This document shows, one piece after another, positions 1 to 51,774 of a stretch of 64,000 nt of DNA. The stretch's first letter is position 1, and each line of letters opens with the position of its first letter. A program made the translations under genes and the position numbers. The DNA comes from an uncultured Gammaproteobacteria bacterium (GTDB lineage: Bacteria > Patescibacteriota > Patescibacteriia > Magasanikbacterales > JBBTQS01), in NCBI GenBank assembly GCA_964627525.1, contig CAZVIA010000001.1:8007-72006 (forward strand). The letters are read 5' to 3'. The notes under the pieces are model-generated. The model was not told the origin of the DNA and made no database searches. It saw only the letters and a program-made list of their open reading frames with translations.

Positions 1-1514
1 CAAATTGTAATTATGATGTGTGTGAAGATGGTTGTGAGTATGAAGGTGCTTGTCCAGCACGTTGTATCCCACATGAACATGATGATGATCACCCTACTAC
101 TAATCAACCATATACATATGCCCCAGAAGACTGTGGGGGTGGTTGGAATTGGAATAGTGATACAGAGTCATGTGTTCGTCCAGGTGTAAATTGTTCAAGT
201 TATAGTAGTGTTTGTGGTGCTTGTCCACAAGGTGATATGAATGATAGTTATTGGTGTGAATATGATGGAGATGGTTGTCCAATGGCTTGTAGAGAAGTAG
301 GACAATGTGATAATGATGGGTATTGTGATCCAGGAGAAAGTTATGAAGATTGTTCATCAGATTGCGGAACATATTCTGGAGGACAGTGTGATCATGATGG
401 ATACTGTGACACAGGTGAGACTCCGTCAGATTGTCCAGATTGTTCAAGTTATACAAGTAGTTGTAATAATAATGGTACTTGTGAAGATGGTGAAACTTTT
501 GAAGGTTGTGGATCAGATTGTTCAGGAAGTTGTGATAATGATGGGTCATGTGATCCAGGCGAAGATATGGGAAATTGTGGATATGATTGTGGTGGTTCAT
601 GTGATAATGATGGAACTTGTGAATCAGGTGAAGATAGTATGAATTGTGGTCATGATTGTGACTCAATGTATGGTACAGGAGGTAGTTGTGATTACAATGG
701 AGTATGTGAATCAGATGAGAATAGTTCAAGTTGTCCAGAAGACTGTAATGTTGTAGATTCTGGTGCAGCATATGATGATGTTACATTGCATGGGGCAACA
801 ATAACAGACAGTGGTCTACAGATTAGTTATTCTAAGAACTTTAGTACTTGTGCCCACTTATTATTCTCCAGCTTTGGAATGGCAACATCATATAATTATT
901 ATTGCACAATGGGTGACTCAATTGTGGTTACACAGCCTTTGGATCAATTTTCAGTAAGTGCTGGAGATTCAATAATGTTGTGCCATGGAAATAATTATGG
1001 AGTGTGTAGTGGTACTGCTGCTATAACTGATTCAAGAAGTAGTGTGTCTAGTTCGGATGATAGTGATAATACTAGTCAAGGAGAATCTTGTGGCTCAACA
1101 ACTTGCGGATTATCAACTGATTGGTGTGCAGACTCTTCAAGAAGTATGTGTTGTCCAACAGGTACCTCAGTGTTGTGTGATAGTGGTGCGTGTACAAATA
1201 GCCTGTCTGATTGTGGTGATCATTATGATGACGAATACCACGACGATGATTTTGATTACTACCATGATGATGGTGGTGCACCATGTGGTACAGGAAATAC
1301 TTGTGCTCAAGGTGACTGGTGTGCTGATGTATCAAATGGATGGTGTTGTCCAGCTTATGCAGAACATATTTGTGATGATGGTCGTTGTGTAGAAAATTAT
1401 TCTGAATGTGATTCACAAAGCTATAATGACACAGGTTTTTGGAAAAGACTTGGAATTAAATGGGACAGCTTTATTTCTAAGTTGCTAGGAGTTTCAAGAG
1501 CATCTAGGTACTAA
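1..1514 (+). CDS. Cys-rich repeat protein (CDNDG-x-CD-x-GE modules), probably secreted or surface; 5' partial, frame open to window start
   Basis: Frame from nt 3 is open to the window edge. At least 8 tandem ~25-aa modules with invariant Cys spacing; Asn/Asp/Ser rich. A hairpin terminator follows the stop. Confidence 0.6.
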   Translation, partial: NCNYDVCEDGCEYEGACPARCIPHEHDDDHPTTNQPYTYAPEDCGGGWNWNSDTESCVRPGVNCSSYSSVCGACPQGDMNDSYWCEYDGDGCPMACREVGQCDNDGYCDPGESYEDCSSDCGTYSGGQCDHDGYCDTGETPSDCPDCSSYTSSCNNNGTCEDGETFEGCGSDCSGSCDNDGSCDPGEDMGNCGYDCGGSCDNDGTCESGEDSMNCGHDCDSMYGTGGSCDYNGVCESDENSSSCPEDCNVVDSGAAYDDVTLHGATITDSGLQISYSKNFSTCAHLLFSSFGMATSYNYYCTMGDSIVVTQPLDQFSVSAGDSIMLCHGNNYGVCSGTAAITDSRSSVSSSDDSDNTSQGESCGSTTCGLSTDWCADSSRSMCCPTGTSVLCDSGACTNSLSDCGDHYDDEYHDDDFDYYHDDGGAPCGTGNTCAQGDWCADVSNGWCCPAYAEHICDDGRCVENYSECDSQSYNDTGFWKRLGIKWDSFISKLLGVSRASRY

Positions 1515-2405: not shown

Positions 2406-2417
2406 GCTAAATTTAGC
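2406..2417. promoter_or_regulatory. Palindromic motif GCTAAATTTAGC (copy 1 of 4), embedded in TTTTTTGGCTAAATTTAGCAAAAAAA
   Basis: Perfect 12-bp palindrome; copies also at 11356, 29926 and 49958, each beside a promoter and a GC-rich island. Confidence 0.5.
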
Positions 2418-6526: not shown

Positions 6527-6943
6527 ATGCCAACAATGAATCAATTGATCCGTAAAGGACGCAAATCAAAGACGACTAAATCAAAGTCGCCTGCTTTGCA
6601 ATTTACATTTAATTCAATCAGACGTAAAAAAACTTACTTAAAACGTGGTGCTCCATTTAAAAGAGGAGTCTGTGTAAAAGTAACAACAGTTACTCCAAAA
6701 AAACCTAACTCAGCTCTTCGTAAAATTGCTCGTGTGCGTTTAAGTAATGGAATGGAAGTAACAGCATATATCCCAGGTGAAGGTCACAATCTTCAAGAAC
6801 ACAGTATTGTACTATTAAGAGGTGGTCGTGTAAAAGATTTACCAGGTGTGCGTTATCACATTGTTCGTGGTGTTTATGATACAGCTGGTGTAGAAGGAAG
6901 AAAGCAGAGTCGTTCAATGTATGGTACTAAAAAACCTAAATAA
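6527..6943 (+). CDS. rpsL: 30S ribosomal protein S12
   Basis: [13 protein letters not shown]...[10 protein letters not shown] conserved S12. Confidence 0.95.
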
Positions 6944-6948
6944 AAATT

Positions 6949-7419
6949 ATGCGCGGTAAATCAGCTCCAAAAAGAATTTTAACACCAGATCCTCGCTACG
7001 CAAGTACTTTAGTAGCAAAATTTACAAATTATTTAATGGAAAGAGGAAAGAAAAGTGTTGCGCAAACAATTGTTTATGATGCTTTTGATCGTATTGAAGA
7101 AAAGACAAAGAAAAAACCAATGGATGTTTTTGAAGAAGCATTAAAAAATATCACACCACAACTTGAAGTTCGTTCAAGACGTGTTGGTGGGGCAAACTAT
7201 CAAGTGCCAATGCCTGTTAGGGGAGACCGAAGAAATGCACTTGCTTTTCGTTGGTTAATTGCAGCAGCAAAATCAAGAAAAGGAAAACCAATGTGTATTA
7301 GACTTTCAGATGAAATCATGGCAGCAGCAGATAGTGAAGGATCGGCAGTAAAGAAAAAACAAGATGTTCACAAAATGGCAGAAAGCAACCGAGCTTTTGC
7401 GCATTTTGCTCGATATTAA
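6949..7419 (+). CDS. rpsG: 30S ribosomal protein S7
   Basis: Conserved S7 sequence; str operon order. Confidence 0.95.
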   Translation: MRGKSAPKRILTPDPRYASTLVAKFTNYLMERGKKSVAQTIVYDAFDRIEEKTKKKPMDVFEEALKNITPQLEVRSRRVGGANYQVPMPVRGDRRNALAFRWLIAAAKSRKGKPMCIRLSDEIMAAADSEGSAVKKKQDVHKMAESNRAFAHFARY

Positions 7420-7459: not shown

Positions 7460-9535
7460 ATGCCGAGAGAATATAGCTTAAATGACACACGTAATATAGG
7501 AATTATTGCGCATATTGACGCTGGTAAAACAACAGTTACCGAGCGTGTACTTTTTTATACAGGAAAAAAACATAAAATTGGAGAAGTTCATGAAGGTGAA
7601 GCTGAAATGGATTGGATGGAACAAGAGCAAGAACGTGGAATTACAATTACTTCAGCAGCTACAACATGTTTTTGGGGCGGCAAAAGAATTAATATTATTG
7701 ACACACCTGGTCATGTAGATTTTACAGCAGAAGTTGAACGTAGTCTTCGTGTGCTTGATGGTGGTGCTGTGATTTTTGATGGTGTTGCTGGTGTTGAACC
7801 ACAATCTGAAACAGTTTGGCATCAAGCAGATAAGTATGAAGTTCCAAGAATTTGTTTTATAAATAAATTAGATAGAACTGGTGCAGATTTTTATAAGGAC
7901 ATAGATTCAATTCATAATCGTTTAACAAAAAAAGCAATTCCAGTTCAGTTGCCAATTGGTGAAGAAGATAAATTTGAAGGTTTGGTAGATTTGCTCAAAA
8001 TGAAAGCTTTTATTTATAAAGATGATTTAGGAAAAGAAATTGAAGAAACAGAAATTCCCGAAGCATTAAAAGAAAAAGCTGAAAAATATCATTCAGAACT
8101 TGTTGAAAAAATTGTTGAAAATGATGAGGAATTAATGACCGCATATTTAGATGGAAAAAAACCTTCTGTAGAAGATTTGAAAAGAGTTTTGCGTAAAGCA
8201 ACAATTGCGAATGAAATGATTCCGGTTTTATGTGGTACTGCTTTGAAAAATAAAGGAGTGCAACTATTACTAGATGCAATTATAGATTATTTGCCTTCAC
8301 CTTTGGATGTTCCAGCTATTGAAGGACATGATGTTAAAGATGAAGAAAAAATTATTGAGCGCAAAGCAGATGATTCAGAACCATTTTCAGCTTTGGCATT
8401 TAAAATTGCAACTGACCCGTTTGTTGGTAAATTAAGTTTTTTCCGTATTTATTCTGGTATTTTAAAATCAGGTTCATATGTTTTAAATACAGTTTCAGGA
8501 AAAAAAGAGCGTATCGGAAGAATTTTGCGAATGCATGCAAACCATAGAGAAGATGTTGATGAAGTTTATGCGGGTGAAATTGCTGCTGCAGTTGGTTTAA
8601 AAGAAACTCGCACTGGTGATACTTTGTGTGATGAAAATAATCCAATTGTTTTGGAGTCAATTACATTTCCAGAGCCAGTTATTTCTGTTGCAGTTGAACC
8701 TAAAACAAAAGCTGATCAAGAAAAAATGGGAATGGCTTTGGCTAAGTTGGCTGAAGAAGATCCAACTTTTGTTGTTTCAACTAATGAAGAAACTTTGCAA
8801 ACAATTATTGCAGGAATGGGAGAACTTCATTTGGAAATTATTATTGACCGCATGAAGCGTGAGTTTAAAGTTGAGGCAAATGTTGGTGCTCCGCAAGTTG
8901 CTTATAAAGAAACTATTAAGAAATTGGCTGAAGCAGAAGGTAAATATATTAAACAGTCTGGTGGTCGTGGGCAATATGGTCATTGTTGGTTGCGAGTTGA
9001 GCCACTTGAGCAAGGAAAAGGTTTTGAGTTTATTGATAAAATTAAAGGTGGTACTATTCCTAAGGAATATATTCCAGCTATTCAAAAAGGTGTGAAAGAA
9101 GCAATGGCGCGCGGTATTGTTGCTGGTTATCCAATTTTAGATGTACAAGTTACTGTTTATGATGGTTCATTTCATGAAGTAGACTCTTCAGAAATGGCAT
9201 TTAAAATGGCTGGATCAATGGCTTTTCAAGCTGCTGCAAAAAAAGCTAGTCCAATCATTCTTGAGCCTTTGATGAAAGTTGATGTAACAACTCCAGAAGA
9301 GTATATGGGAGATGTAATTGGTGATTTAAACTCAAAGCGTGGGCAAGTTCAAGAAATGAGTGATCGTGGTCAAGTAAAAATTGTTAAAGCAATGGTTCCT
9401 TTGTCTGAAATGTTTGGCTACACAACAAGTTTGCGTAGTATGACACAAGGGCGTGCAAGTTATTCAATGGAATTTGCACATTATACAGAGGTTCCAAAAA
9501 ATGTTGCTGAAGCAATTGCAGAAGGTAAAAAATAA
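7460..9535 (+). CDS. fusA: Elongation factor G
   Basis: [10 protein letters not shown]1 and DTPGHVDF G3 motifs; 691 aa. Confidence 0.95.
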
Positions 9536-9577
9536 AATTCAATAATTTTTTTTAAAAATAATTTAAAAAACAAAAAT

Positions 9578-10033
9578 ATGTCTGATTACATGCGAAAAAT
9601 TTTAGATTTAATTGGGCGAACAGGGGATAGATGTATAGTAGTTCACCCAGAGACAGAAGATGCTTATGTTGTGATGGCAATTGAGGATTATGAAATGTTG
9701 GCTGATGCTGCTTCTGATTTAGAGTGGGATGATGAAGCCGAAGGAGAAGAGGATTATGATGAGGAATGGGAATTTGGTGATGATGTTGAAGATCAGGTGG
9801 TTGATGAAGTAAAAGAAAATGGAAATAATGCTTTGGAAGAATGGCGAAAGCAAATGCAAGCTTTGGCAGCACAAGATACTGACTCTGAAGAACCATTTGA
9901 GATTGCACTTTCAAGTGTAAGGCAAGATGATGAAATTAAAGGAGAAATCAAAATTGAGGAAATTCCACAAGCAGAAGCTGAAAAAGTTGAGGGAAAAGAT
10001 GATGATAGGTTTTATATAGAACCTGTAGAATAA
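9578..10033 (+). CDS. Acidic hypothetical protein with a Phd/YefM-like N-terminal segment
   Basis: N-terminal RCIVVHPETEDAYVVMAIEDYEML resembles the Phd/YefM antitoxin core; the rest is a D/E-rich low-complexity tail. Confidence 0.35.
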   Translation: MSDYMRKILDLIGRTGDRCIVVHPETEDAYVVMAIEDYEMLADAASDLEWDDEAEGEEDYDEEWEFGDDVEDQVVDEVKENGNNALEEWRKQMQALAAQDTDSEEPFEIALSSVRQDDEIKGEIKIEEIPQAEAEKVEGKDDDRFYIEPVE

Positions 10034-10055
10034 ATTAGCCAACATAAAATAACCC

Positions 10056-10205
10056 GCACACAAATAAAAAATACTTCTAAAGGGCTCTGCGTAGGGTCGC
10101 CAGCATGGTGTCCGACCGTAGGTCGGACTGGTGACCACGAGCAAAGAGCGAATGCGCCGCAGGTGCGCGTGAGTGTCCCGATAGAAGTATTTTTTATTTG
10201 TGTGC
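10056..10205. repeat. Inverted-repeat element: 23-bp perfect IR (gcacacaaataaaaaatacttct / agaagtattttttatttgtgtgc) flanking a 104-bp GC-rich core
   Basis: IR arms at 10056-10078 and 10183-10205 are exact reverse complements. The core contains a perfect hairpin gtccgac-cgtag-gtcggac. Confidence 0.6.
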
Positions 10206-10310
10206 TTTTGTTTTTATTGACTAATTTATTAGTATTTGTTACTATGTATAGTCGTCTGTTGCTAATTAGTAAGTGGCGGGTGACATTAATTGGAAAAAGG
10301 AGAGTTTGCT

Positions 10311-11189
10311 GTGACAAGGAAATATCCTGTCTCCGGCGATCTTTACAAGAGAATTGATGCAAAAATGTCTGAGCTCAAGCGAATGCTCAGACAAAAGAAA
10401 GGGTGTATATTTGACCCTGCTGATCTTTTTGTTGCTTTGCAGTACTTGATTGATGGAAAGATCACAACACAGGATTTGATTGCAGTGTCTTTGAGAAAAG
10501 ACGAGCAAGCTCAACAACCTGCTGTGCGCATGGATAAGTTGTTCCTTTCTCCTGGGGAGCAGTGGTCCTTGTTTCTTGAGTACAATGAGAATCTACCTGA
10601 TGAGTTGAGATTCACCAAAGAAGAACTTTTGGCTTTTTGTATGGAAGGTGGTAATCCTAATCCACCTGAACTACCAGAAGACGCAAGTCCTCTCACGGTA
10701 GTCCAGCTCGTTCCTTATCAAGAAACAGTAGAAAAAACCATTGCGTTCTTGCTGGGTTTTGTTCAAAGCCAAATGGAAAAGCTCGGGCTGAACTACTACC
10801 AATGGGAAGGGTATAATGATCTTTTGACCAAAAAAGATGTAATCCGTCTTCTCCCAGGTATTGAACATCCAAGAAAGTGTCTTCGTTGGGAAATCGTAGA
10901 TCTTGGTGCAAATAGAGGAAAAAAGCCTTGTGATGTGCGAAATGAGAACAGTCCTCATGCAGCAGTACTAGCTGCAGCAGGATTTCACACCAACTGGTCA
11001 ACAAGCATGGATGGAGATAAAATCCCATACGTGTTTATGCCTGGGTATCAGGTTACTGTTCCAAGTGGTGATTCGTGGCAGTACGTGCCTCACATCTGGT
11101 TCCATCAGCACGATCGCAGGCTCAGGATCGGCTGCAGCTGGGATGGCTACTGCAACCAGGGTTGGGCTGTTGTGGTGGTTGCGATTTAG
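10311..11189 (+). CDS. Hypothetical protein (ORFan) on a GC-rich insert
   Basis: GTG start with AAGGAG 9 nt upstream (the ORF track used TTG at 10290). Higher GC and GC3 than neighbours. C-terminal Cys/Trp/His-rich motif; no recognisable domain. Confidence 0.5.
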   Translation: MTRKYPVSGDLYKRIDAKMSELKRMLRQKKGCIFDPADLFVALQYLIDGKITTQDLIAVSLRKDEQAQQPAVRMDKLFLSPGEQWSLFLEYNENLPDELRFTKEELLAFCMEGGNPNPPELPEDASPLTVVQLVPYQETVEKTIAFLLGFVQSQMEKLGLNYYQWEGYNDLLTKKDVIRLLPGIEHPRKCLRWEIVDLGANRGKKPCDVRNENSPHAAVLAAAGFHTNWSTSMDGDKIPYVFMPGYQVTVPSGDSWQYVPHIWFHQHDRRLRIGCSWDGYCNQGWAVVVVAI

Positions 11190-11355
11190 GGGAGTAATAT
11201 AGAACTTGAAGCTAGGAAACTAGCAACTTGGAAATCCTTGGTTCTTGTAACTTGAACCTTGGATTTCTTTTTTATATTTTGAACTTTGGGTTTTTAGAAT
11301 TTAAATATTGGTGCACCTTTAAAAAAATTATGTAAAAAGTTTTTCTAAAAATTTC

Positions 11356-11367
11356 CCTAAATTTAGC
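11356..11367. promoter_or_regulatory. Palindromic motif copy 2 (cCTAAATTTAGC, 11/12)
   Basis: TTTCCCTAAATTTAGCAAAAAAA, about 30 bp upstream of the tuf promoter. Confidence 0.4.
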
Positions 11368-11393
11368 AAAAAAATCATTCACACATAAAGCAC

Positions 11394-11423
11394 TTGACAC
11401 CATATACTCCAAAATGCTATAAT
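11394..11423 (+). promoter_or_regulatory. tuf promoter TTGACA-N18-TGC-TATAAT-CCCA
   Basis: Consensus -35 and -10 with extended TGn and a CCCA discriminator. Confidence 0.7.
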
Positions 11424-11512
11424 CCCACCGCTTTTATTAAGCTTTTATTAACTTAAATAAGCGATTAGGCAAGCTTAGGCAATGCCGTCGCAGTAAGATA
11501 AAGACCATTCAT

Positions 11513-12706
11513 ATGGCAGAAATGTTCGACAGAAGTAAACCACACGTTAACGTAGGTACAATTGGTCACGTTGACCATGGTAAAACAACCTTAACCGCTG
11601 CTATCTTAAAAGTGCTTGGTGCACAAGGAAAGATTGCACAGGATAAATCAGTAGATCAAATTGACGCTGCGCCTGAAGAGCGCCAGCGTGGTATTACAAT
11701 TGCTACAGCTCATGTTGAGTATGAAAGTGATGCACGTCACTACGCTCATGTTGACTGTCCAGGACACGCAGATTATGTAAAAAACATGATTACAGGTGCC
11801 GCGCAAATGGATGGAGCTATTTTAGTAGTTTCAGCAGCAGACGGTCCTATGCCTCAAACTCGTGAGCATATTTTGCTTGCACGTCAGGTTGGTGTACCGC
11901 ACATTGTTGTATTTTTAAACAAAGTTGATCAAGTTTCAGATCCAGAATTGCTTGACTTAGTAGAAGAGGAAGTAAGAGACTTGTTAAATAAGTATGAATT
12001 CCCAGGAGCTGATACACCAATTATTCGTGGTTCAGCTTTGAAAGCTCTTGAAAATCCAGGGGATGAAGCTCACGCAAAACCAATTACAGATTTACTTGAT
12101 GCTTTGGATTCATTTATTCCAACACCAGAACGTGATGTAGATAAACCATTTCTTATGCCAATTGAGGATGTTTTCTCAATTGAAGGGCGTGGTACAGTAG
12201 TTACTGGTCGTATTGAACGTGGAATTGTAAAAGTTGGTGAAGAAATTGCAATTATTGGAATGGGTGAGGAAGTAAACAAAACAACAGTTACTGGTGTAGA
12301 AATGTTTAATAAACAACTTGATCAAGGTCAAGCTGGAGACAATGCTGGTATTTTGTTGCGTGGTGTTAAAAAAGAAGATGTACAGCGTGGTCAGGTTTTG
12401 GCAGTTCCAGGATCTGTTACACCTCATACAGAGTTTGAAGCAGAAGTATATGCTTTAAGCAAAGAAGAGGGTGGACGTCACAAACCCTTTTTCAAAGGTT
12501 ACAAACCTCAGTTTTATATGCGTACAACTGATGTAACTGGAGAAGTAGAACTTCCAGAAGGAACAGAAATGGTTATGCCTGGTGACACTGCAAACTTGAA
12601 GATCAAATTGATCGTTCCAGTTGCTCTTGAAGAAAAGCAAAGATTTGCTATTCGTGAAGGTGGACGAACAGTTGGTGCAGGTGCAGTAACAAAAATTTTG
12701 AAATAA
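11513..12706 (+). CDS. tuf: Elongation factor Tu
   Basis: [10 protein letters not shown] and DCPGHADY motifs; 397 aa. Confidence 0.95.
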
Positions 12707-29451: not shown

Positions 29452-29501
29452 CTAGAAGGGTCATTGTGGATCCTCGGAGCTCGGGGGGCGGATATCGGCG
29501 G

Positions 29502-29798
29502 TTAGGCTGCTTCGTCGATTTGGAGCTGGAAGAGCTCTCGCTCTGCCATCTTGAATCGGAACAGTGCCGTTCCGGGAATGGTCGCTCCTTGGACACGCTC
29601 GATGATCGAACGTTCCGTAAGAATTTCCATTCCTTTATGGAACTCTTCCAGATCAGTACTCTGACCCACAGAACTAGGGACGAAATCCCTGTCTGTGTCG
29701 AGCTGCACTACGAAGCGCGGCTCGCCAAGGGACTGGGCAGTCCCTCGTGCCAAAATGAACAGATCGACAAGCAGGTTGCCTGCGAGCGGATTCAGCAT
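29502..29798 (-). CDS. Hypothetical small protein (98 aa) on a GC-rich insert between scpA and scpB
   Basis: GGAGGG SD 6 nt before the second ATG; own consensus promoter and terminator; GC and GC3 well above neighbours. Confidence 0.5.
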   Translation of the reverse strand: MLNPLAGNLLVDLFILARGTAQSLGEPRFVVQLDTDRDFVPSSVGQSTDLEEFHKGMEILTERSIIERVQGATIPGTALFRFKMAERELFQLQIDEAA

Positions 29799-29865
29799 GT
29801 TTCCCTCCATAGAAACTTAGCTGAGGTGATCGTCGTGCAACGGCCTTTCCACTGCAAAACAGAAT

Positions 29866-29895: not shown

Positions 29896-29925
29896 TCTTA
29901 GGTTTACACATGTAAGATTTTTTGG

Positions 29926-29937
29926 CTAAATTTAGCG
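29926..29937. promoter_or_regulatory. Palindromic motif copy 3 (TTTTTTGGCTAAATTTAGCGAAAAA) between divergent promoters
   Basis: Perfect 12-bp palindrome. Confidence 0.5.
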
Positions 29938-49957: not shown

Positions 49958-49969
49958 GCTAAATTTAGC
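49958..49969. promoter_or_regulatory. Palindromic motif copy 4 (TTTTTTGGCTAAATTTAGCTATTTTTT)
   Basis: Perfect 12-bp palindrome 30 bp upstream of the island promoter. Confidence 0.5.
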
Positions 49970-50355: not shown

Positions 50356-51774
50356 ATGTCGAGCCTTACCGCAGTAGTCGTGACCGAGCAGACCGACGAC
50401 ACCACCACCACGACCGAGGTGGAGGCCACCGTGGCCACCACCGACGTCGAGGTGATGCAGAACGACCAGGGGCTCGAGGCGCAAGACGCGTCCGAGCCGA
50501 CCTTCGGCCAGAAGGTCGAAGGGCTCTGCGCGCAGATCGACCCCGAGCTGGAGTGCTCGGGAGAGGGTTGCGAGCGTAGCCGTCGAGACGGCTACGTAGG
50601 AACGTTCCTGTTCCCGCCGGTCGCCCGCATGGGTGACATCCTCAGTCAACTGGCTGAGGAGGATGGTGGGGGGCGCCAGCGCGTGGAGGTCGGAGTGACC
50701 GACATCAGCGAGTTCGCACGGTGTCGTTCCTGCGCCACGCAGGAGCACAACCAGGAACTCGACCGCATCGTCGGAGGCATCCTCTCGCGTCAGGCCAAAA
50801 AGGCTCGTTCGGAAGAGCTCAGGGTGGCACTCAAGGACGAACTCGGGTTCGTCGAGTGCACGCACGAGGATTGCGGCTGCCTGATCTACGTCGAGGAGCC
50901 CTCGCGGAACGTTTTGGTGGCCACTTTCGGCAACCAGATCCCGCGGCGGTTGTACCCGGCGTTCGTGCCGAGTCTCGCCTCTCTCCGTGAGGAGTTGGAG
51001 CGCGACGCGACGGTCGAGGATCTCGTTTCCCGCGCACGATGCGCAGGTCACGCGGACACCTTGGCAAAGGGGTCGAGCAAGTGGCACAAGGCCAGCTCGA
51101 CCTTGGGGTTGATGCGTCAGGAGCTCGCGGATCGCGAGTGGCGCAACAACATCAACGGTTTGCTGCGCGGTGCCGGGGCGGAGCTGTGCTCGTGTTGTGG
51201 CGACCGGGCAGTCTTCCCCCACCAGGACGAGATGGTCAGTCACGAGCAGGCCGTTCGGATCTTCGGTTGTGAGGGCGACGTGCCCCAGCAGTCGGACCTC
51301 GTCGGGTACTGTTTGCCCGTCGAGTGGTTCGAACGACAGGGTGTGGTGATCCTGTCCGAGCGCGACCTCTTCTCGCACATGATGTGCAAGAAGTGCGCTA
51401 TCCAGTCCGGTAAGGAATACCGGTCCGGGCTCGAGCAGCGCGAGGCTGAGGGTGACTGGGAGAACGTGAAGGCCAGGGACATCAACGGTCCAATGTTCTT
51501 CAAGTTCACGGCAACGTGGAACCGGCTGGAGCGCGAGTTGCGCGGCAGCCGGGGAAGCGACCAGGGCTCGAGTTCGGGCTTGACTCGCGAGCAGCGTCAC
51601 CAGACCGGCGGTGCCTTCGGTAACGCGGCGAACATGGGTTCGTCGAGCTACCGCAAGGACAAGTCCGAGAAGCGGAGTGCGGACAAGGAGTTCCGTGACC
51701 TGCAGAAGGGCGACGAGACTGGCCGTACGGGTCGGTCGAAGGAGCAGAAGAATGGGGGTAAGAAGGACAAGTAG
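50356..51774 (+). CDS. High-GC Cys-rich hypothetical protein (ORFan; multiple CxxC-like knuckles, Thr-rich N-terminus, disordered basic C-terminus)
   Basis: GC3-biased codons on the + strand and an AAGGGGA SD before the ATG at 50356. The antisense 420-aa ORF is a typical high-GC shadow. The ORF-track start at 50269 lies in lower-GC sequence. Confidence 0.6.
   Translation: MSSLTAVVVTEQTDDTTTTTEVEATVATTDVEVMQNDQGLEAQDASEPTFGQKVEGLCAQIDPELECSGEGCERSRRDGYVGTFLFPPVARMGDILSQLAEEDGGGRQRVEVGVTDISEFARCRSCATQEHNQELDRIVGGILSRQAKKARSEELRVALKDELGFVECTHEDCGCLIYVEEPSRNVLVATFGNQIPRRLYPAFVPSLASLREELERDATVEDLVSRARCAGHADTLAKGSSKWHKASSTLGLMRQELADREWRNNINGLLRGAGAELCSCCGDRAVFPHQDEMVSHEQAVRIFGCEGDVPQQSDLVGYCLPVEWFERQGVVILSERDLFSHMMCKKCAIQSGKEYRSGLEQREAEGDWENVKARDINGPMFFKFTATWNRLERELRGSRGSDQGSSSGLTREQRHQTGGAFGNAANMGSSSYRKDKSEKRSADKEFRDLQKGDETGRTGRSKEQKNGGKKDK

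Follow-up and report, generated by a model that had tools for sequence, protein, structure and literature searches.

What separates the genes of the two elongation factors in this genome, and how did it come to stand there? The stretch of DNA analysed here, called the window, comprises 64,000 nt of GenBank assembly GCA_964627525.1 (contig CAZVIA010000001.1, positions 8,007–72,006 of the forward strand), and all coordinates below are window positions unless a locus is named. Within it, fusA, encoding elongation factor G (EF-G; a 691-aa open reading frame (ORF) at 7460–9535, plus strand), is the left neighbour of the region in question, and tuf, encoding elongation factor Tu (EF-Tu; a 397-aa ORF at 11513–12706, plus strand), is the right one. 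From the end of fusA at 9535 to the start of tuf at 11513 the distance is 1977 bp. A first-pass annotation, which had put the two genes ~1.97 kb apart, read the whole space as a 2-kb insert in the str operon; every feature it placed there was found, exactly or within one or two bases. Our analysis leads to a narrower reading, which we consider probable as a whole. An acquired cassette of ~1.25 kb, carrying an RNA hairpin and a gene read as the target, either remote or orphaned, of a diversity-generating retroelement (DGR), stands beside an ancestral gene, ORF1. The target gene is referred to as ORF2.

The limits of the insert emerge from a comparison set of 80 related fusA loci, 49 of which contain both fusA and tuf. 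The EF-G of the window is 64–77% identical to proteins of Patescibacteria metagenome-assembled genomes (Falkowbacteria, Komeilibacteria, and others), 77% being the maximum, and its EF-Tu is 65–82% identical to those of the related loci. The two genes had been taken to be normally contiguous, but in the 49 loci they are rarely close; the distance is mostly 400–660 bp, and in 13 loci it exceeds 1 kb with varied cargo. The first ORF of most gaps is a homologue of ORF1. Such homologues lie inside the gap in 21 of the 49 loci by phmmer and in 33 by jackhmmer, mostly immediately upstream of tuf, and in long gaps the homologue is usually the last gene before tuf (e.g. L012, L013, L026, L037, L040, and L059). 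On the 3′ side of it, the relatives have a simple hairpin flanked by A- and T-runs, followed by a tuf promoter of the TGnTATAAT type. The usual order in the lineage is rpsL–rpsG–fusA–ORF1, terminator-like hairpin, promoter, and tuf. ORF1 is ancestral because its homologues occupy the gap of the relatives, and so are the position of the terminator-like hairpin and the separate tuf promoter. What is specific to this genome is the hairpin core and ORF2 alone, both of which are absent from all 80 related fusA loci. The proposed insertion is thus upheld as lineage-specific and GC-richer, but it shrinks to ~10034–11290 and leaves ORF1 outside.

The cassette lies between ORF1 and the tuf promoter, and is composed of the hairpin, ORF2, and a terminator. 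The GC content is raised across the insert, with 40–51% in ORF2 versus 36% in the window. ORF2 (10311–11189, plus strand) encodes 292 residues. It starts with GTG at 10311, 8 nt after a GGAG, and its product is identical to the database protein P0001. An inverted repeat 42 nt after the stop codon forms its terminator, which has a 14-bp stem with one mismatch and a 9-nt loop (11231–11267) and is followed by a T-run ending at 11273. The terminator is 100% conserved in L004, a paralogous locus. Hence, ORF2 has its own ribosome-binding site and terminator. A candidate ORF2 promoter, TTGACT-17-TACTAT, was located by the promoter scan at 10217–10245 (plus strand), where the first-pass annotation had it. 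It is weak, matching at 9 of 12 positions with a TG before the −10 hexamer, and sites of this quality number seven in the scan against 4.8 expected in shuffles, which is not above chance. The GC content, the absence from the 49 relatives, and the paralogue in another genomic context together suggest that the cassette would have been acquired by this genome. It is hardly credible that nothing was inserted and that ORF1, hairpin, and ORF2 form an ancestral arrangement lost by the relatives: ORF1 is truly ancestral and the gap does vary across the lineage, but neither ORF2 nor the hairpin occurs in any of the 80 loci, the GC content of ORF2 and of the hairpin core exceeds that of the genome, and members of the ORF2 family stand elsewhere in unrelated contexts.

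ORF2 had been described as a GC-richer ORFan. Its length, position, and GC content hold, and it has no match in Pfam, NCBIfam, PHROG, or PADLOC, with a word-indexed search returning only seven relatives. However, a profile search of 1.84 billion cluster representatives retrieved 968 clusters at E ≤ 1e-3, including 250 at E ≤ 1e-30 (clusters counted at 50% identity), so that ORF2 belongs to a large family. None of the 968 clusters has a Pfam match. A metagenome scan for the family yielded 80 loci, and no members were found in viral contigs. Family comparison identifies ORF2 as a homologue of DGR variable (target) proteins. In a DGR, a template repeat (TR) is copied by a reverse transcriptase (RT) with misreading of template adenines, after which the cDNA takes the place of the variable region (VR) in the target gene. 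An RT gene adjoins ORF2 homologues in eight loci, and six distinct loci (L001, L088, L090, L104, L105, and L108) have a VR–TR pair in addition to an RT gene beside the homologue. The family genes there are 32–45% identical to ORF2, except for that of L108 with 29%, and the TR lies 0.3–0.5 kb downstream of the target gene.

The L001 locus illustrates the arrangement. A 135-nt repeat of the homologue's 3′ end has 12 differences from it, and the downstream copy has adenine at 12 of 12. Further genes after the homologue encode bAvd (PF22296, E 1.3e-13) and an RVT_1 reverse transcriptase; among the DGR-linked loci, bAvd was sought in L001 only. The TR–VR mismatches fall at TR adenines in 12/12 cases in L001, 21/21 in L088/89/102, 13/13 in L090, 15/17 in L104, 20/21 in L105, and 12/18 in L108. 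Since mismatches at TR adenines are the defining pattern of a DGR, a subset of the ORF2 family are DGR targets, and in this subset the last ~44 codons are the DGR variable region. Other members have no RT in cis despite at least 2 kb of downstream flank (L093, L094, L098/99, L106, and L107), and neither does the more distant soil clade of the family where the flank is long enough.

Has the corresponding region of ORF2 itself been diversified? By codon alignment with the DGR-linked homologues, it comprises the last 43 codons (11058–11186, plus strand). The paralogue P0002, encoded in L004 (Joint Genome Institute (JGI) sample 3300009106), is located upstream of ybaB and differs from ORF2 in the N-terminal third. 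DNA alignment demonstrates that the two genes match from 10660 to 11276 (plus strand), terminator included, at ~100% identity. The differences within this common segment are confined to the patches 10676–10697, 10896–10898, and 10914–10948 and to the VR sites. In the VR, there are 12 substitutions in 102 bp (11083–11184). All 12 are nonsynonymous and all 12 fall at codon position 1 or 2, leaving none synonymous and none at a third position, and the 92 bp after 11184 are identical. The other differences 3′ of 10700 number 13, in the patches 10896–10898, 10914–10925, and 10946–10948, and six of them are at third positions. Seven of the 11 variable codons of ORF2 are TR-adenine-mutated codons of L088, and two more correspond to A-containing TR codons. 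Because the 12 differences are without exception nonsynonymous, at codon position 1 or 2, and mostly at codons that are adenine-mutated in the relatives, we infer that the VR of ORF2 bears the mark of adenine mutagenesis and would have been written by a DGR. In other samples, contigs of this organism stop at 10655 (L007) and 10738 (L170), at the start of the common segment, as expected if both paralogues co-occur and the segment is repeated within the community. The proteins P0009 and P0010 combine both versions in mosaic form.

Several observations weigh against this reading. The search for the missing components covered ~77.8 kb of this genome, including ~14 kb beyond the window. With the RTs of L001 and L088 as queries, all tblastn hits in the window, L168–L171, and L004 had E values of 0.09 or more; with the bAvd of L001 as query, there was no hit below E 3.5 in the ~77.8 kb. 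A sliding scan for a TR on both strands of the window, in which A was accepted at mismatches, returned only AT-rich noise, a repeat search of the window found no TR, and the TR/VR pattern has no match in the metagenome and viral collections. The VR haplotypes found are two, plus mosaics, and the VR is identical in the window and L169; two versions with mosaics fit paralogues exchanging sequence better than ongoing hypermutation. Besides, 8 of the 12 VR differences are A/G transitions, which ordinary mutation favours too. Mutagenesis of the ORF2 copy, current or past, is presumed from sequence comparison. The fold adds another point, as a C-type lectin fold is not seen in the structural model of ORF2 described below.

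These observations bear on whether a retroelement still acts on ORF2. One DGR clade (clade 2) is restricted to Patescibacteria (Roux et al. 2021, PMC8144416). Remote DGR targets are recognised, and RT-anchored surveys, which detect targets beside an RT only, admit missing the remote ones (PMC8144416). ORF2 may well be such a remote target, acted on in trans by a DGR located elsewhere in the genome, although we stop short of regarding this as the expected outcome. It may also be an orphaned former target, whose RT and TR were lost or never transferred, and which would now evolve by ordinary mutation and gene conversion with its paralogue. We regard the orphan state as a tentative but serious possibility. 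It agrees with RT, TR, and Avd not being found in ~78 kb, with the presence of only two VR haplotypes and mosaics together with an identical VR in two independent records, and with the family members listed above that have no RT in cis. On the other hand, the contig measures 142.5 kb and the genome is presumably larger, most of it outside the ~78 kb covered, remote targets do exist (PMC8144416), and the body and terminator of the paralogues are 100% identical while their VRs are 12 sites apart, which argues for a recent, targeted change. Improbable in comparison with both is an origin of the VR differences that involves no retroelement, in which diversifying selection would act on a ligand-binding tip alongside patchy gene conversion between the paralogues. 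The eight A/G transitions, the other small difference patches at 10896–10948, and the recombination evident in P0009 and P0010 would be accounted for in this way, but not the fact that 0 of 12 differences are synonymous or at a third codon position, nor the finding that, of the 11 variable codons, 9 stand where DGR-linked homologues have A-containing TR codons. The homologues are, moreover, demonstrably DGR targets.

Compared with known systems, the remote or orphaned target proposed here resembles DGR targets in that its VR is at the C-terminus, its host belongs to the candidate phyla radiation (CPR), and the 12 VR differences between its two known haplotypes lie at codon positions 1 and 2. 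Its homologues carry a downstream TR with adenine-specific mismatches beside an RT gene, together with bAvd in L001. Like the remote DGR targets described previously (PMC8144416), ORF2 is away from any RT. Unlike a complete DGR cassette, it has no RT, TR, or Avd found within the ~77.8 kb of this genome. Unlike known targets, the family has no Pfam model, and ORF2 has no evident signal peptide as judged by reading the N-terminus only.

Annotated VRs are consistently linked to folds of the C-type lectin (C-Lec) kind, and the unannotated ones are suspected to be new variants (PMC8144416). The AlphaFold model of ORF2 built from seven sequences has a predicted local distance difference test (pLDDT) score of 67. 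With 16 sequences, the pLDDT increases to 76.7, the predicted template modelling (pTM) score is 0.69, and most of residues 80–280 have a pLDDT of at least 85. It is this model, resting on 16 sequences, that does not display a C-type lectin fold, and the ORF2 profile has no match among the PDB sequences. Given the shallow alignment, the family may represent either a C-type lectin variant or a different scaffold.

A number of ORF2 relatives share a leader RNA. In 14 loci, a leader hairpin is found upstream of the ORF2 family gene, between a promoter of the type TTGACAAAA...TATATT and the ribosome-binding site. Its P1 hairpin, UUGAAAACGGCG...CGCCGUUUUCAA, follows the helix pattern UUGARRNCGGC...GCCGUUYUCAA, contains a variable apical helix, and precedes a second small hairpin. 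The leader sites are L088:5694–5826, L093:5685–5826, L090:1473–1612, L092:594–745, L094:5759–5892, L003:3595–3728, L100:233–360, L005:324–442, L095:5607–5727, L104:5556–5678, L105:2759–2880, L107:5829–5928, and L135:5869–6001. Over 13 sequences, 94% of the cells are paired and 10 of 21 pairs have compensatory changes. None of 500 shuffles reaches the observed covariation, and slid registers are only 38–50% paired. In the two loci scanned against Rfam, the leader matches no family, and full-text literature searches surfaced no description of it. Composed of an A-run, a GC stem, and a U-run, it is terminator-like in shape and may be an attenuator. A conserved leader hairpin before the gene also distinguishes the ORF2 relatives from known DGR targets. 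The P1 pattern is absent from the window.

The window has a different RNA structure at the left edge of the cassette. Inverted-repeat search and folding define a long-stem hairpin with a GC-rich core at 10044–10217 (plus strand), 10 nt after the ORF1 stop codon and flanked by an A-run and a U-run. The first-pass annotation had noted perfect 23-bp inverted repeats around a GC-rich core. The arms are indeed perfect and the core is GC-rich, but the arms are 24 nt long (10056–10079 and 10182–10205); they enclose a core of 102 nt (10080–10181, ~62% GC), and the pairing extends to 41 nt at 83% complementarity (10044–10084 with 10177–10217). The plus-strand RNA folds with −81.5 kcal/mol (z = −8.4; 0 of 200 shuffles as stable), and the minus strand with −75.0 kcal/mol.

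The suggested search for further copies of the element led to one diverged copy in the same genome (L168:17664–17860), ~1.2 kb past the right end of the window, between a gene for a 228-aa protein and comEC. The two cores are ~75% identical. The closing stem of the second copy, ~45 bp, differs in sequence but keeps its pairing, and one apical pair changes from A-U to G-C between the copies in a compensatory manner. The minimum free energy of the second copy is −100.7 kcal/mol on the plus strand (z = −8.2) with 11 G·U pairs, and −80.7 kcal/mol on the minus strand with two. The unpaired blocks common to both copies are GCAUGGUGUCCG, AGCGAA, and UGAG..CCGA. The strand asymmetry in G·U pairs, the second copy, and the compensatory change lead us to infer that the hairpin forms in plus-strand RNA and that this genome has at least two diverged copies of it. 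The strand-specific pairing and the lack of a target-site duplication speak against a DNA cruciform and against a transposon with terminal inverted repeats.

No known RNA class accounts for the hairpin in the searches made. At the gathering threshold, Rfam matches only two tRNAs in the whole window and not the hairpin; at E ≤ 10, both copies have only sub-threshold chance hits. Searches of the window and 1.8 Mb of loci by blastn and nhmmer found no further copy than that in L168. Comparison by eye, not a test, with signal recognition particle (SRP)/4.5S RNA, 5S rRNA, hammerhead ribozymes, T-box, group II intron domain V, and integron attC gave only short chance resemblances. Three other candidates were rejected. 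Six pattern hits in viral contigs are all chance matches within GC-rich coding sequence. A peptide encoded in the core is not conserved, as the copies would give MVSDRRSDW and MVSGFTAGRAKVNA, respectively. A diverged form of the family leader RNA does not fit either, as the leader pattern is absent from the window and local alignment of the core to the 13 leaders scores no better than shuffles (best z 1.8).

As to function, our preferred guess, a tentative one, is that the hairpin is a 3′-end, processing, or insulator element, such as an RNase III site or a terminator. The closing stem of 30–45 bp, the A- and U-run flanks, and the location at the site of the relatives' terminator-like hairpin point in this direction. 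The stem would be long enough for an RNase III substrate. The hairpin would set the fusA–ORF1 transcript apart from ORF2, and a stable, GC-rich RNA of ~100 nt might be freed from it. It resembles intrinsic (bidirectional) terminators and RNase III stalks in lying 10 nt after a stop codon with A/U-run flanks and a 24–45-bp stem, and the simple A/T-flanked hairpins of the relatives at the same position resemble terminators. It is unlike them in that its stem encloses a conserved, branched, GC-rich core of ~100 nt, and unlike terminators in that the second copy is upstream of comEC and not after an operon. Two points count against the guess. The stem next to the U-run is AU-rich, so the hairpin is not a canonical intrinsic terminator, and only two copies are known.

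Slightly less likely, in our judgement, but a serious alternative is a small structured RNA gene of an undescribed class, or a 5′-leader regulator of ORF2 and comEC. Such a role would suit a GC-rich core in an AT-rich genome, the conserved unpaired blocks GCAUGGUGUCCG, AGCGAA, and UGAG..CCGA with covarying closing stems, and the placement of both copies upstream of and co-oriented with a gene. It would also suit the weak −10-like boxes 10–30 nt upstream of both copies, and the different, well-supported leader hairpin that ORF2 relatives carry at the matching relative position. It is less compatible with closing stems of 24–45 bp, which are atypical for riboswitches, with the lack of an Rfam family and of any homologue of the two copies in 1.8 Mb of other loci, and with the candidate ORF2 promoter lying downstream of the hairpin.

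It is improbable that the hairpin represents a mobile element of the miniature inverted-repeat kind or a scar of ORF2 delivery. Like miniature inverted-repeat transposable elements (MITEs) and repetitive extragenic palindromic (REP)-like repeats, it has perfect inverted arms, 24 nt each, is intergenic, and exists in more than one copy; it also marks the left edge of the insert, and the related copy is in another intergenic region. Unlike them, it has no target-site duplication (the arms are flanked by AACCC| and |TTTTG), its arms differ between the copies while the cores are conserved, the opposite of transposase-recognised ends, and its G·U pairs make the structure strand-specific, which indicates RNA. 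The paralogue in L004 has no hairpin.

ORF1 (9578–10033, plus strand) encodes a D/E-rich protein of 151 residues with an N-terminal domain similar to Phd/YefM, a probably disordered tail rich in D/E, and FYxEPxE as a conserved motif at the C-terminus. The family alignment contains three conserved parts, which are the N-terminal domain, a central LTExELxDKINxDIAxWK, and a C-terminal (D/E)xFYxEPxE. PF02604 (Phd/YefM) matches 21 of the 32 aligned members (best E 1.3e-6) over their N-terminal ~45 residues. The resemblance to Phd/YefM antitoxins suggested for the N-terminus is hence borne out at the family level, not the assignment of ORF1 to the insert. The window ORF1 alone is below the Pfam threshold, with no PF02604 hit at E ≤ 0.07 and only an antitoxin family, phrog_2268, at E 0.008; YefM structures match the family profile at E 0.14–0.45. 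No toxin partner is found next to ORF1 in the window or in the relatives. The next gene in the relatives is usually tuf; in the window, the downstream neighbours are the hairpin and ORF2, and ORF2 has no match to a toxin family. Judged from these alignments, ORF1 is a conserved Phd/YefM-like acidic protein without a toxin partner. With type II antitoxins of PF02604, the ORF1 family shares the small size, the acidity, and, in 21 of 32 members, a match over the N-terminal ~45 residues. It differs from them in having no adjacent toxin gene, in keeping its place between EF-G and EF-Tu throughout a group of phylum level, and in an additional acidic tail with the LTExELxDKINxDIAxWK and FYxEPxE motifs. 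This tail, acidic and probably disordered, bears a loose and speculative resemblance to acidic tails of the ribosomal stalk proteins in contact with translational GTPases. A translation-related role of ORF1 is pure speculation.

On the other side of the cassette, motif and promoter scans place a palindrome and the tuf promoter at 11356–11423 (plus strand), in resident sequence outside the insert. The promoter is a perfect TTGACA-18-TATAAT at 11394–11423. Both elements had been noted in the first-pass annotation, which took the promoter to be re-created; this part does not stand, as the relatives have their own tuf promoters, of the TGnTATAAT type, at the matching position. The palindrome, (C/G)CTAAATTTAGC, written out CCTAAATTTAGC, is located at 11356–11367, ~27 nt upstream of the tuf −35 box. 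The form GCTAAATTTAGC has four copies in the window (2406–2417, 11356–11367, 29925–29936, and 49958–49969), compared with 0.32 expected, and they are flanked by T- and A-runs. The remaining three are intergenic, before or between genes. The palindrome may be an operator or an UP-like site.

The gene order around the junction is otherwise simple, with rpsL (6527–6943) and rpsG (6949–7419) before fusA, as read from the region, and rpsJ as the next gene after tuf. In the relatives, gaps of 1–6.7 kb (L012, L013, L027, L059, L085, and others) hold unrelated cargo, including an APH kinase, a PD-(D/E)XK nuclease, a PMT_2 glycosyltransferase, a Bro-N protein, an HI0933 flavoprotein, and a PG-binding/PKD protein. 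The fusA–tuf junction of Patescibacteria appears to be a tolerated insertion site. Aside from the cargo, several relatives (L009, L010, L017, L018, L022, L025, L026, L032, L040, L042, and L054) have a tuf leader motif within the 60–100 nt before tuf, in which GGCUGG, one or two hairpins, and GGCC(G)U directly precede the Shine–Dalgarno sequence. The tuf leader of the window (11424–11512) does not have this motif.

Three regions elsewhere in the window are also unusual. A gene for a protein of ~472 residues (50357–51774, plus strand) has 62–72% GC in a genome of 36% GC, encodes several CxxC pairs, and has no Pfam match. It is followed by ~0.7 kb of non-coding-looking sequence, to ~52480, that is partly GC-richer than the genome, and the region from 50357 to ~52480 looks like a foreign island. 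A gene for ~100 residues (29500–29810, minus strand) with ~60% GC lies within a block of plus-strand genes; it carries a GGAGG of its own, its stop codon is followed by a hairpin, and the region has neither a Pfam nor an Rfam match. At 299–661, the 3′ part of a gene whose 1836-aa product has no Pfam match contains five tandem 69-nt units encoding the Cys-rich repeat CDNDG.CD.GE...C..DC. In L171, from another sample, the gene upstream of ndk encodes 584 residues instead of the 1836-aa protein, and a response-regulator gene stands before it; L171 and the window (1284–1513) have no more than 231 nt in common, with 94% identity. As the gene upstream of ndk differs between L171 and the window, the left window end indicates a strain-level rearrangement.

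For the lineage, these results correct a misreading, in that the fusA–tuf junction of Patescibacteria is not tight but holds a conserved Phd/YefM-like gene and frequently other cargo. For DGRs, the system type, a DGR variable protein, is already known, and the parts worth following are the fold, the leader RNA, and the hairpin family. ORF2 illustrates that a remote or orphaned target is recognisable without an RT, by family membership and by a comparison of paralogues restricted to the VR. It adds a target family without a recognisable C-type lectin fold and with a covarying leader RNA in the relatives. A joint reading, in which a non-lectin DGR scaffold family with a leader RNA, a trans-diversified ORF2, a new small RNA class, and an antitoxin-derived, phylum-wide ORF1 are all real, is in our view unlikely to hold in full; if it were true, a distant retroelement would diversify ORF2 in trans, with the gene residing inside a translation-factor operon. 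If confirmed, the ORF2 family would widen the scaffolds and the regulation used for targeted hypermutation in CPR bacteria.

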